From Octopus vulgaris (taxonomy: Eukaryota), in the NCBI GenBank assembly GCA_951406725.2, contig OX597816.1, positions 120,528,001 through 120,592,000 on the forward strand: a stretch of DNA of 64,000 bases, written 5' to 3'. Under the pieces are notes generated by a model. It ran no database searches and was not told the DNA's origin. It saw only the letters and a list, made by a program, of their open reading frames with translations. Shown here piece after piece: positions 1,166 to 56,857 of the stretch (its first letter is position 1; every line of letters begins with the position of its first letter). Position numbers and translations under genes: made by a program.

Positions 1166-1197
1166 TTCTGTTGAAGAGCATTGGCTCGAAACGTAAA
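1166..1197 (+). ncRNA. Degenerate or variant minimal hammerhead ribozyme
   Basis: CTGTTGA-a-GAGC(attg)GCTC-GAAA-CG-TA; stem II and GAAACGTA intact, core position 6 deviates, stem I weak. Confidence 0.5.
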
Positions 1198-3063
1198 AGA
1201 CCTTCTCACTTCTCGAGCGTTAAACTAATACATCTGCTTGTTGTTTACACACCCGTCTTCGTCTTTTGTTTTGTGTTTTGTTGTAAATTCCAACTATATA
1301 TGTATGTATATATATATATATATAGAGAGAGAGAGAGAGAGAGAGGGAGAGAGAGAGAATGAGGGAGAGAGAGAAAGAGTATGGTAACAAATACATGCAA
1401 CAATACAACTGGATATGTGCTCATACACACACACTGACACACACAAATACACACACAAACACACGCACACACACACAAAGACTCACAGAAATATATATGT
1501 CTACAAGTCCTAATGCGTAGTAAGGTAACAGGATAATACCGTTAGTAGGGAAGGTTAGGAAAGACAATAAAAGAAAATAACGGAATTAAAACTGAATAAA
1601 ATTAAATAAATTAATGACAGTAAAATATAGTTAAATACCAGAAGATATAAGGAGGCTTAATTTTCTATACTTTTCTATAAAAGGAAGTTTAATTTTCTAT
1701 ATGCGTGTACATAATATGTGCGTGAATGTACGTAGCGATATCTGTGCAGTGGTGGGTCCTAGTATGTCTCCAACATAGCTGTGCGTCAAATATAATCAAC
1801 AAAAGCAGTACGAGATAGAAAGAAGTAATGGCGGCAATCTGACTCGTTCACTCTCTCTTTCTCTTTTTGTCTGTCTGTCTCTCTTTTTCTCCCTCCCCAC
1901 ACACATACACAAAGAGAAAGAGACAGTGTGGGAGAGAGGACGAAAGTATCTGAAGAAGGTATTCAAAATTGAACATCAAGCTAGAAAGAGAAGCAAGAGG
2001 CGGGATGAAGATAACGAAATGTTCTAAATTTAATTTAAAATATGGCGATTATGGAGCTATTTTGATGATATTATTTATCATTACGTATTTTTAAACATAT
2101 TTAATATTGTTTTACATATTTGTAATGCTATTAAAATAAACATAAATTGAATTACTTTCAAAAGCACAAACACAAGAGTATGTACACACACAAACACGCA
2201 CATGCACACACACACGCACATTTATGCATTTATGTATTCATATATATATATATATATATATATATATATATATGTATGTATGTATGTATGAACGGGTGTA
2301 GTTTTGCATGTACCTTTGTAGATGTATTTTATAGATGTACGGTACATAATAGAATATCATCGAAGAGTTTGTTATTTCCTATTCAATAAGAGCAATTGCT
2401 GAGCTTTTCACGAAAAGAGATTAACTTATTGACGAATGCTGAATTAGAATCACACGGCAAAGAGATAAAAGAGGTGTTTTGTAATTTTACATGGAATTGA
2501 CGCTCCATCACGTCTGGTGTTCTTAATTCAATCTAACAGTATTAGTTACCTTCTAGTAAGTCATTTAATTTGATTTTTTTTTTGAAATATTCACTATATT
2601 ACTATATATCATAGCGCGTAGCTATTTAGTTTGATATAAGGTATTTATTCTGTTTTTTTCTATGTTTTTATTCGGTAAACTACTTTGTATTTCGACTGCT
2701 AATACACAGACGTGTTGGCACACGAGTACACTCACTCAAACACACACTCACACACACACACACACGATCAAATACAGCATTTTTTTACATTGATACAGGC
2801 ATGTTAAAAGCCTAACTTTAGATAAGAAAGTGCATGGAGACACATGCACATATACAAATTACAAATGATTAAGTACACACACACACACACACACACACAC
2901 ACACACACACACATACACACACACGAATATACTTAAAAATATGCACACAATATATGAGGGGTATACACGCATACGCTTGTGTATGCATACATTACACATA
3001 CGCATATATATGTGTTATGTTTGCAAGTTTTATGAATCAATACATGATAAAAATAGAATGAAC

Positions 3064-4160
3064 CACTGAATAAGCACAATTTTATTTAACGTAGGTTATA
3101 GGGCTGTTCAGCTGGTTTTATTATTTTATTGATAACATCAAGGAACATTTTCAAAAAAGTTTTTAGTCGTCTTGCTTTTTACAATTAGTCCAATCTACTT
3201 TGATGGTGCTGGGTTCAAAAATGCCCTCATAAATTTTCTATCACGTCAAGTTTTTTGTCCAACAGGAATTCATTTTTTACAAAAAATGTCAATTTTGCCA
3301 TTAAATGCAATGCTGAAATAAGAAACTAACACAAACCAAATAGTACTTTTTCATTGTTTAGCAAATATATTACATAAAATATTTAAGTACAAATCTTAGT
3401 GTCAAATTGGAATTTCAGCTACTTAAGGTGTGAACTTTCTCTTTGCTGCTTTGCGTGAATGAAGAGCATCATGACAGTCAGTTTGTAGAGCTCAGCAGTA
3501 GTCAACCATCATATTTATGTTCTACCTGCTTTGATACATAGTCTCCATGGTTTCGATGTCGTAGTGGAATCTTTCTCCTTGTTCATCACTTATTGCAATA
3601 TTATTTTCAGGGAAGTAGTCTAGATGACTGTGCAGGAAATTCACTTTTACACTTATGCTGTAAGACTTTGAATTAGACATTTGTAAGACATTTGTAGGAC
3701 TTTGAATTAGACATAACTGCAGCAAAAGTATTTAGATAAGAAGACATAGCAGAAGACATCGGGCTGTTTTGCATTTACTTCTCTCACAACTGGCCACATT
3801 TCTGAAATACAAAATATGTATTGAAACCAAAAAAGCATTCTCAGAATTGTCAACAGTTATAAGATAAGCGAATGCAGAATTTTGATGGCAAAGTTCCATG
3901 AAAAGCATACATGCCATGAAGCTCTTTCAACAGTTCTTTGACCATGCTTGACAAAAACATGTCACACCAAGCTTGCTATGTTAGTCACACAAAATCAAGC
4001 ATAGCGTGGGCATTTGTGCAGACAAATTCCACAAATACGAGACATGTATTATGTTAAGGACCACAAGAATGTGTTGTTTATTAATATCTAATTGTATAAA
4101 GGATATATCTTTCATCATCATGATATTTAAAACAAGTCAGGTTAAAAATAAGTGTAAGTT
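3064..4160 (-). mobile_element. Internally deleted Chapaev(3)-like (CMC superfamily) DNA transposon relic
   Basis: Minus-strand peptide pieces PDVFCYV (~3740-3780) and FLHSHLDYFPENNIAISDEQGERFHYDIETME (3530-3645); CACTG at 3064 is a possible terminus; family assignment from recalled motifs. Confidence 0.6.
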
Positions 4161-4189
4161 GTTCAAGTTTGATGCTTTTTATTCACTGT

Positions 4190-5015
4190 AGGTACTTAAA
4201 AAACAACAATACTGGGCTTAGTAAATTAATTTGGTCTCTAAAGGAACATAAACAATTTGATTTAGAAGGGAATATTCTATCCAGATCCTTCCAATATGAT
4301 AAAAGTAAATATTTTTGTCCACTCTGTAACGAAGGACAATTCCCCATCCTGTTCTCGGAGAATTCTCTTGTAAACACGTTTAAAGAACGCGTTTATCGTT
4401 GCAAATATTGGCAAAAAACATACCTTTAGTTCCTCTAAGTAATTTCTACCAATCTATAAAATTCGGCCTTTAACTGCCTTCTTACATTTTATTTCCACTA
4501 CATAAATCTATTTCCACGCTTTAAAGCTCAATTCCCATTCATCTATCTCACTACATTACTTCACTATTAATTTTCTGTTAATTTCTTTCTTTCTCCCCCT
4601 TCTCTTTCTCTAAATTGCCTTTAACGTTAACTCTATTAACGGTTTTTTAAAAAATTAACTTGGCAGCTTTCCCCTTCATCATATACGCGGTAATCGCATT
4701 CAGTTAAAATGGTTTATTAATATGTTTTGTTTGTCTTTTGTCCCTGACAAGATGATTTCATTGTTTTACATCATTTTATTCCCTCCGGAATAATATCAAC
4801 GTTTTCTTTCGAAACATATGTCGGAAGTATAAAGATTTGAAAAACATCTACGTTTGACTCCGTTTCTTAATTTATCTATGTTATACAAAAATATTTCACT
4901 TAACCCTGGAATTTCTACCTTTATAAGTAGGCTGTAATATCCTTGGCACTTATGTGAATATTGGCTACCCTGGTAACTATTTATTTATTTTTTCTGTGTT
5001 ATCTGTACACATTAA
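4190..5015 (+). mobile_element. PLE 3' fragment (Naiad-like C-terminus) with 3' UTR
   Basis: TGLSKLIWSLK...NILSRSFQY...CPLCNE...LVNTFKERVYRCKY matches the TxLSKxIWxLK..CxLC..LNxRxE..CxH pattern; HHR-like motif downstream; ends at (CA)n/(TA)n. Confidence 0.75.
4741..4825 (+). ncRNA. Hammerhead ribozyme-like motif with long stem II insert
   Basis: TCC-CTGACAA-ga...tc-GAAA-C(ATAT)G-TC-GGA; palindromic stem III, GUC site, C3/A8 mismatch. Confidence 0.55.
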
Positions 5016-5408
5016 AATACACACACACACACACCATTATATATATATATATATATATATATATATATATATATATATATATATATATATACGTAATATG
5101 GGGTTTAGTTCACCTGTGATCTAAACGAATAGGTACGTTGGGGGAGTGCTGTAATGGATTATCAGGGTTCCAAGCTCGTAACTGATGCGGGAGCTATGTT
5201 TCCGTTTTAGGTTTCCGATTTGTTGTCCTCTTTCACACACGCACGCACGCACACACACACACTTATCTTTGTATCTGTATGTGTCTCTGAATGTCTGTGT
5301 GCCTCTGTGTGTGTGTGCAGACACTCACACAGACACACACACACACACACACACACACACACACACACACACACACACACACACACACACACACACATAC
5401 ACACACAT

Positions 5409-55929: not shown

Positions 55930-56200
55930 AAGAAGAAAAAAACGCCATCAGGTGTACTGTTGGCGGATTTTTCGAAGCATGGTAGTTTTGAAGGCTGTAG
56001 TATCTGGACAGTTAACGACTGATACGGGTAGTTTATCCCATGCTTCAATAATTCAGTGCGTCAAAGTATGTTTCCGAAGGTTACGGGTGTTGTGTTGTTT
56101 TGATTTTGTGAGCATGTCCACGAATGTTTGACATATGGAATTCAAAAAAGTGCCCAATGTTGTTGGAAAGTCTCTTTCCACAGCAGTTCTCAGATTTGTG
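55930..56200 (-). mobile_element. CR1-type LINE 3' end relic
   Basis: NIRGHAHKI ... RKHTL..IIEAWDKLPVSVVNC..TTAFK, matching the TRGH..WNxLP..VV..FK terminal block. Confidence 0.75.
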
Positions 56201-56302
56201 ATATTTTATTGTATAATTTATCTCTTCTTCAAAACAATTCTTTTTAATATGTAGTTCTTTATAAGAAAATAATCATAAAATCTCATTTTCACTATTTAAT
56301 AC

Positions 56303-56468
56303 AGGCGCAGAAGTGGCTGTATGATAAGAAGCTTGCTTCCCAAGCAGATGGTTCCGGGTTCAGTCCGACTGCGTGGCACCTTGGGTAAGTGTTTTGAACT
56401 ATAGCCTCGGGCCGACCAAAGCCTTGTGAGTGGATTTGGTAGACGGAAACTGAAAGAAGCCTGTCGTA
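56303..56468 (+). mobile_element. SINE family 3, 5' half
   Basis: GGCGCAGAAGTGGCTGT..GGTTCAGTCC..GCCTTGTGAGTGGATTTGGTAGACGG. Confidence 0.85.
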
Positions 56469-56817
56469 TATATATATATATATATATATATATATTTCCT
56501 TTCCTGAGCGTCCAATAACACTATACTTGTTCCACGTCCTCGCATTGTGTTTTCTCTTTGTTCATGTTTGGATTAACCTCTCTCTCTCTCTCTCTCTCTC
56601 TCTCTCTCTCTCTCTCTCTCTCTCTCTCTCCATATATATATATATATATATATAGGTGAGAAAGTTGGTGTGTGAAAGCACGTGGTTGAATATATAGAAA
56701 ATAGTAAAAAGTGAAAAAACTACAAAAGGCTTGTTTTAAAAGGTTAAAAAATATATATTTGAGTCAATATGTATGAAGAATGTTATAAATTTTTTTCATA
56801 CAATGACATAGTTTTTG

Positions 56818-56857
56818 AAGAAATGACCGGTTTCGCGTTCAGCTTTTCAAATTTCTT
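56818..56857 (-). ncRNA. 40-nt hammerhead ribozyme, U3-A8 core variant (second copy)
   Basis: rc AAGAAAT-TTGAAAA-GC(tgaac)GC-GAAA-CCGG-TC-ATTTCTT; GUC site. Confidence 0.78.

Follow-up and report, generated by a model that had tools for sequence, protein, structure and literature searches.

A natural G3-C8 hammerhead motif in a high-copy, likely Penelope-derived repeat family of Octopus vulgaris

The window analysed here, 64,000 nucleotides (nt) of Octopus vulgaris contig OX597816.1 (positions 120,528,001 to 120,592,000), is AT-rich animal DNA, rich in microsatellites and broken transposons, in which hammerhead ribozyme motifs occur alongside fragments of Penelope-type retroelements. An initial annotation had listed eight hammerhead cores with three kinds of pair between core positions 3 and 8. 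All eight were found where it had placed them, and C-G, U-A and G-C pairs do occur. Motifs are named below by the coordinate at which the core begins. Our main subject is the motif at 12008, whose G3-C8 pair belongs to a dispersed repeat:

11966 to 12015, minus strand: minimal type I hammerhead motif with a G3-C8 pair (descriptor, fold and contigs).
11886 to 12031, minus strand: short dispersed repeat of about 145 nt that carries the G3-C8 hammerhead, its 3′ end adjoining a (TA)n run at 11885 (contigs in four runs).

Stem I of the 12008 motif comprises 7 base pairs (bp) between 12015-12009 and 11972-11966. The core runs from G3 at 12008 to A9 at 12002 and is followed by an extra G at 12001 and by a 5-bp stem II (12000-11996 with 11987-11983) that includes a G10.1-C11.1 pair. 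G12 lies at 11982 and position 13 at 11981, after which come the palindromic stem III, AATATT, at 11979-11974, and U17 at 11973, with the predicted cut between 11973 and 11972. AATATT is in register only with G12 at 11982, and position 13 of the window copy is therefore a G. The initial annotation was right about the GTGAACA core and its G3-C8 pair but overlooked that this copy departs from the conserved core at position 13 (A13G). If A13 is kept intact in the window copy, 10.1-11.1 becomes a G-G mismatch and the palindrome is lost; the contigs described next rule out this reading.

The state of the family was taken from contigs of four public sequencing runs (X2, X3 and X10, of DNA type, and X7, possibly of RNA) aligned to region 11885-12055 at 80% likeness, with differences listed from 3%; the alignments held 10423, 8227, 5691 and 417 contigs, respectively. 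Position 11981 is A13 in 99.84, 99.33, 99.72 and 99.48% of contig depth (in the same order of runs), so the G of the window copy is a rare change. Across positions 12002-12008 (core positions 3 to 9), no alternative letter reaches 3% in any of the four runs, and one contig has a C at the free position 7. Read directly from the contigs, the family majority is G3 U4 G5 A6 A7 C8 A9, an extra G, a 5-bp stem II, GAA, a 6-nt palindrome, U17 and a 7-bp stem I. It has the conserved core letters U4, G5, A6, A9, G12, A13, A14, A15.1, U16.1 and H17, and G3 with C8 forms the Watson-Crick pair of positions 3 and 8, the literal consensus letters C3 and G8 being absent. The G3-C8 core is thus a family trait and not a one-off. 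That variant cores would be kept in family consensuses, as had been proposed, holds for the G3-C8 repeat, the only family whose majority letters were examined in contigs. The family varies at CpG sites, along its 3′ flank, within loop II and at a single position of stem I, where a U-G pair is kept; a second loop II sequence appears in the loose ends of 22-65 contigs per DNA-type run.

Low-agreement loose ends of the contigs cluster at 11886-11888 and at 12031 and mark the boundaries of the repeat, and some copies extend beyond 12046. Core depth relative to the median depth of single long contigs came to about 35,000, 36,000 and 32,000 in the three DNA-type runs. The repeat probably has some 30,000 copies, a figure to be read as an order of magnitude given that summed depth is no true copy number. 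Summed depth is 2-4.5 times higher 3′ of the motif, perhaps because the variable loop affects alignment. Within the window, no second copy was found (15 matches at three mismatches, with 11.0 expected). An exact 20-mer of the family had no match in viral contigs. An 18-mer matched 53 loci in metagenome contigs; all of them lack the motif's 3′ half and show no homology beyond 23 bases, and they were judged to be chance.

Where the repeat ends, and how its copies are joined, point to Penelope elements. The 3′ end of the family lies 85 ± 1 nt beyond the predicted cut. In PAc, a Penelope element (Poseidon) of the anole Anolis carolinensis, the hammerhead cut falls 26 bp and the start of reverse transcription 111-118 bp into the reported frame (PMC11167929), so that, by subtraction, the PAc hammerhead cuts 85-92 nt upstream of the start, a likeness in distance to the octopus repeat. 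Junction types were read from the contigs. Of the 15 joints listed, 10 connect opposite strands and fall at 12025-12032. X3 and X10 also contain a head-to-tail joint from 12018 to 11896, where four bases are inserted; it is not among the joints listed for X2. Penelope insertions typically include inverted, 5′-truncated copies as well as partial tandems (PMC8557442), and by that comparison both kinds of joint are of Penelope type. From the end position, the TA target, and the inverted and tandem joints, we infer that the G3-C8 repeat is likely derived from Penelope. As separate observations, four of the 10 opposite-strand joints listed end at 11973-11978, near the predicted cut, two of them possibly representing one junction, and we did not use them as evidence; and an ATG-started frame of about 10 codons (11916-11886, minus strand) stays open to the 3′ end of the repeat and could begin a parent frame, as in other pseudo-long terminal repeats (pLTRs).

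Besides the 12008 motif, the window holds the following hammerhead motifs:

50596 to 50635, minus strand: U3-A8 minimal hammerhead motif with an intact core and A17 at 50603 (descriptor and fold).
56818 to 56857, minus strand: U3-A8 minimal hammerhead motif of the 50628 family, with C17 at 56825 (descriptor and fold).
11347 to 11391, plus strand: U3-A8 minimal hammerhead motif of a second family, with A17 at 11385 and a (TA)n run starting 87 nt further on (looser scan).
49317 to 49362, plus strand: C3-G8 hammerhead motif with an 8-nt palindromic stem III and a stem I of only 3 bp (looser scan and fold).
54764 to 54857, plus strand: C3-G8 type I motif with a bulged stem I, the best kept of five family copies in the window (inspection and fold).
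10711 to 11863, both strands: four more copies of the 54773 family, degenerate or truncated, tandem and inverted, with cores near 10842 (minus), 11015 (plus), 11546 (minus) and 11695 (plus) (repeat comparison).
29705 to 29748, plus strand: C3-G8 minimal hammerhead motif with A14G (descriptor).
1160 to 1200, plus strand: hammerhead-like motif with a C3-G8 pair and U at position 6, core at 1168-1174, A17 at 1195 (sequence inspection).

Each of the eight cores listed initially had been credited with stems. Five of these copies do have an intact core and stems (50628, 56850, 11353, 49320 and 54773), and the other three are damaged, by the loss of stems I and III in 11695, by A14G in 29709 and by A13G in 12008. 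The two U3-A8 motifs on the minus strand, 50628 and 56850, share an intact core, a 7-bp stem I, a stem II of 2 bp and the palindrome ACCGGT. The same palindrome occurs in 11353 (plus strand), which has an intact U3-A8 core, a 6-bp stem I and a 5-bp stem II with one unpaired base on each side, and which sits among the 54773-family copies at 10711 to 11863. At 49320 (plus strand), an intact C3-G8 core is combined with a 7-bp stem II, an extra A before G12, the palindrome ACAGCTGT and the 3-bp stem I. Contrary to the initial annotation, not all copies are minimal. The 54773 motif (plus strand) has an intact core, a 9-bp stem II with a 35-nt loop and a 9-nt near-palindrome as stem III, and 11695 (plus strand) belongs to its family, with 1 bp left of stem I and a broken stem III. 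With 53 nt between its core halves, 54773 is reminiscent of the 'half-core' motifs that have been described in some Naiads (PMC8557442). The 29709 motif has an inverted partner, also A14G, with its core at 29209 (29213-29170, minus strand); the region 29106-29836 is a large inverted structure in which these two A14G copies flank (TAA)n tracts and another inverted repeat pair.

A ninth motif, absent from the initial description, has its C3 at 1168, with U where A is usual at position 6. Its stem I is only 2 bp long in the window copy, left so by a near-duplication of five bases directly upstream. Placing a U3 core at 1166 was rejected, stem II then being out of register with GAAA. An extra base between A9 and 10.1, a G10.1-C11.1 pair and a palindromic stem III are all present in 12008, 29709, 1168 and 49320; 50628 and 56850 are without the extra base, and 11353 has C10.1-G11.1. 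Between 10711 and 12031, three hammerhead-bearing repeat families (long-loop C3-G8, U3-A8 and G3-C8) lie within 1.3 kb around two (TA)n runs. Overall, for eight of the nine motifs a TA/TG run lies no more than 115 nt downstream, compared with 11.4% of control positions; for three of them (50628, 56850 and 54773) the run lies inside the repeat.

The motif scan used a descriptor with positions 3 and 8 unconstrained, with 40 local dinucleotide shuffles per setting as control. The strict descriptor gave two matches in the window, both U3-A8, and none in all 40 shuffles. Allowing one core mismatch with long stems gave two matches (29709 and 12008) against a shuffle mean of 0.075. At the loosest setting there were six matches against a mean of 0.625, and four of the six are paired at positions 3 and 8 against a mean of 0.15. 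A search with positions 3 and 8 constrained only to pair had been recommended at the outset; with both left free, variant-core matches did exceed the shuffles. The 11353, 49320 and 54773 motifs fall outside the shuffled descriptor, which excludes an extra base before G12 and a stem I that is short or poor in Watson-Crick pairs; 11353 and 49320 come from the looser scan, run without shuffle control, and inspection, and 54773 from inspection only. An Rfam scan (E up to 10) had no hammerhead family among the best 150 of 217 matches.

Four remnants of Penelope coding sequence lie in the window:

2 to 550, plus strand: C-terminal part of a Penelope frame that closes with a stop codon at 548-550 and includes a GIY-YIG endonuclease and a CxxxxCxxC linker (the Pfam GIY-YIG match, E 0.0015, does not reach the curated threshold).
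13040 to 13448, minus strand: Penelope-type linker and GIY-YIG endonuclease fragment (protein match and endonuclease profile).
47743 to 48252, plus strand: C-terminal fragment of a Penelope reverse transcriptase, with stop codons (70% identity to P0001 over 170 amino acids, E 4e-70).
50772 to 50864, minus strand: probable C-terminal end of a Penelope GIY-YIG endonuclease frame (weak tblastn match to P0001).

Only two motifs sit behind an endonuclease end, and that different Penelope lineages carry the distinct cores, as the initial annotation inferred, is a conjecture. For the U3-A8 motif at 50628, a stop codon ends the endonuclease frame about 144 nt upstream of the core, on a short, weak match: tblastn of P0001, which spans reverse transcriptase and GIY-YIG endonuclease, gave 75% identity over 16 amino acids (E 0.006) and 62% over 21 (E 0.005). 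The 1168 motif lies in the 3′ tail of the frame at 2 to 550, about 620 nt behind the end of the GIY-YIG frame. Less directly, 49320 follows the interrupted reverse-transcriptase fragment on the same strand at a distance of about 1.07 kb, with other insertions between, and the 13040 fragment is about 1 kb upstream of the G3-C8 repeat, with microsatellites between and most repeat copies starting at about 12031. Around 11353, 29709 and 54773, the endonuclease profile detected no additional Penelope fragment with a significant match. The matches at 47743-48252 (plus strand) and near 50802-50864 (minus strand) both resemble P0001 at 70-75%, and they may share one Penelope family. Near 12890 (minus strand), about 150 nt behind the stop of the 13040 fragment, a core-like heptamer with G at positions 3 and 8 runs into a microsatellite and is perhaps the decayed hammerhead of the 13040 element itself. 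Anatomy and setting support a reading of the motifs as putative Penelope-type minimal type I hammerheads.

This layout is that of the minimal hammerheads described in Penelope elements by Cervera and de la Peña (PMC4209133), with an extra base after A9, G10.1-C11.1, a palindromic stem III, and U-rich 5′ and AU-rich 3′ flanks. The G3-C8 family resembles those hammerheads in type, in layout and in its occurrence as dispersed single copies in large families, and differs in its swapped 3-8 pair and in a copy number that is probably some 30,000. U3-A8 itself was reported there in 2014 (Schistosoma mansoni, about 1,300 matches), and Fig. S3 of that study, with 56 motifs and no cephalopod, contains 53 C3-G8, two U3-A8, one U3-G8 and no G3-C8 cores. 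Perreault et al. (2011; PMC3088659) likewise described natural U3-A8 covariation, together with a 2-bp stem II, a weak stem III and an A6C variant of low activity; their section on core variation names neither G3-C8 nor U at position 6, unlike the 12008 and 1168 motifs. In a full-text literature search that did not cover Lünse 2017, the likeliest prior source, G3-C8 appeared only as an engineered mutant (PMC3884650, PMC8495972 and PMC11167929), with no natural case. A search combining hammerhead and octopus returned no paper on such a family, and the main text of an octopus repeat annotation (PMC13282606) has no mention of ribozyme or hammerhead. Short motifs of our families were not found in hammerhead context in the Naiad consensuses supplied with PMC8557442, where line breaks may hide matches and only two motifs were also sought in reverse. 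The compensated U3-A8 core is not new, and the copies with C3-G8 or U3-A8 simply add ordinary members to a class already known. Natural G3-C8 in a high-copy animal repeat family appears, within the literature searched, to be a new variant.

A published experiment bears directly on this core. In the PAc hammerhead, the single changes C3G or G8C abolish cleavage and the C3G/G8C double mutant partly restores it (PMC11167929). The engineered double mutant has the core seen here; there it is a laboratory construct with partial, protein-dependent activity, whereas in the octopus family it is the natural majority and its activity is predicted only. As the double change recovers in part what either single change abolishes, the arrival at a paired state by two transversions suggests selection on the active core. 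A comparison of 50628 with 56850 gives a similar indication: with loop II and position 17 left out, 34 of 34 stem and core positions agree, against 194 of 236 positions outside (Fisher p 0.004), and the three differences within the motif fall in loop II and position 17. U17 in place of C17 in the G3-C8 family fits, weakly, with avoidance of a G3-C17 trap hinted at in PMC3884650, U17 being common in these motifs.

We consider it probable that the motifs are hammerheads in likely 3′ end fragments (pLTR pieces) of several Penelope-like families, and that 12008 belongs to an abundant G3-C8 family for which slow, dimer- or protein-assisted self-cleavage is predicted. The RNA of such an element would fold stems I and II, each motif being the ribozyme of a Penelope-type 3′ repeat. 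The palindromic stem III, too short to close alone, would pair with a second copy, and each copy of the pair would cut the other after U17, processing multimeric element RNA; a Penelope protein may chaperone this two-copy cleavage. Like C3-G8, the G3-C8 pair would keep nucleotide 8 positioned, though cleavage would be slower. The family itself could be a short non-autonomous derivative, with Penelope reverse transcriptase and endonuclease supplied in trans. Copying would then start about 85 nt beyond the cut, and 5′-truncated, sometimes inverted or tandem copies would be inserted into (TA)n.

Hammerheads with a short palindromic stem III have been described as cleaving as dimers (reviewed in PMC6765202), a pathway that the initial annotation also cited as proposed for minimal Penelope hammerheads. 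By computed fold, a dimer is more stable than two monomers for 50628, 56850, 11353 and 49320, and not for 12008, 29709, 54773 or 11695. The minimum-energy fold of 12008 has the 7-bp stem I and the 5-bp stem II, with stem III available only as the intermolecular 6-bp palindrome.

Several points weigh against the reading of the 12008 family as an active, Penelope-derived hammerhead. The computed 12008 dimer, at -28.8 kcal/mol, is less stable than two monomers at -30.8, and the monomer fold lengthens stem I with a G3-U17 pair. The UUU cleavage triplet of the G3-C8 motif is slow. Over the whole 40-nt motif, the agreement of 50628 with 56850 (37 of 40, against 194 of 236) is not significant (p 0.16). 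Sites in the G3-C8 repeat with variation of at least about 5% number seven in the roughly 96 nt outside the motif and one, still paired, in the 50 nt inside; identity among young copies is mostly descent, and so small a number of common variants does not amount to proof of selection. The family has no reading frame linked to it. PAc inserts in vitro without a working hammerhead, and no reads began at its cut site (PMC11167929). Self-cleavage, for every motif here and for the G3-C8 family among them, is a prediction from sequence.

Some of the same observations would suit a G3-C8 motif that is a relic, a weak or dead founder core kept by descent, or stems retained as a protein-binding signal. 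Insertion of PAc in vitro does not need its hammerhead (PMC11167929), Naiad elements thrive without canonical hammerheads (PMC8557442), the 12008 dimer is not favoured, few subfamily-level changes are available to test selection, and depth is 2-4.5 times higher 3′ of the motif. A dead core, however, has no reason to pass through two transversions and arrive at a Watson-Crick 3-8 pair; loop II varies among copies while core and stems do not; and a Penelope hammerhead engineered to G3-C8 retains partial activity (PMC11167929). We regard a relic as unlikely, though it is the strongest of the alternatives.

The head-to-tail joint allows another account, in which neighbouring hammerheads release head-to-tail units of about 127 nt that then form circles and are reinserted in the manner of retrozymes, single copies being by-products. 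The 12018/11896 joint makes a unit of that length with the entire G3-C8 motif, a possible tandem array, and its depth of 1587.5 in X3 and 95.2 in X10 is about 36 and 11 times single-contig depth. No tandem array of hammerhead units is present in the window between 10400 and 13600. Animal retrozymes have been proposed to derive from Penelope pLTRs (preprint 10.64898/2026.07.22.740005), and, like the non-LTR retrozymes of animals (PMC7229834), the G3-C8 repeat is short and non-coding, with a type I hammerhead and some head-to-tail joints. Those retrozymes form tandem arrays of 220-390 nt units with mostly canonical type I hammerheads, unlike the octopus repeat, which is about 145 nt long, mostly single and has a minimal variant core. 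The joint, moreover, amounts to about a thousandth of core depth and is missing from the X2 joints listed, and most loose ends enter unrelated AT-rich flanks. A retrozyme-like cycle is improbable on this evidence. Least likely by far are chance look-alikes in AT-rich repeats with short inverted repeats, a reading that the silence of Rfam among its best 150 of 217 matches, the 2-bp stem II of 50628 and 56850, and at least 120 loci with a degenerate G3-C8 pattern in viral contigs (two of 120 listed pass a loose stem filter, probably by chance) might favour, and that is largely refuted by the shuffle controls and the family contigs, which confirm A13, with the position of motifs relative to an endonuclease end and to repeat ends also against it.

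Elsewhere in the window, a Tc1/mariner-type element at 39063-41061 carries a DDE_3 transposase fragment (39661-40278, minus strand) between inverted repeats of about 210 nt, and a mariner (Mos1-type) transposase helix-turn-helix fragment lies at 6050-6373 (minus strand). The 231-nt stretch around the 11353 motif (11240-11470) is present, whole or in part, in 20 of 24 listed sequencing runs with three organism labels; none of the 24 consists of raw RNA reads.

We return to the Penelope reading. Why these elements keep hammerheads is a puzzle, in that their RNAs cut poorly and the PAc ribozyme is dispensable for insertion in vitro (PMC11167929), and it has been suggested that hammerheads merely parasitise the elements. 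To pass from C3-G8 to G3-C8 requires two transversions by way of inactive intermediates, and a large family that in nature has become fixed for the paired outcome offers a direct handle on whether catalysis is selected; it also provides a natural test RNA of 40-50 nt for the 3-8 pair. The full proposition, that about 30,000 copies of a Penelope-derived element carry a natural G3-C8 hammerhead that cuts and that is undescribed in print, is one we hold tentatively, as possible and somewhat doubtful. Descriptors fixed on CUGANGA undercount these hammerheads: as the initial annotation anticipated, they miss both variants, in line with what Cervera and de la Peña noted for U3-A8 (PMC4209133). If the G3-C8 core does cut, its presence in the same genome as C3-G8 and U3-A8 families would show that selection maintains catalysis in Penelope hammerheads, and that searches for CUGANGA overlook entire ribozyme families of high copy number.

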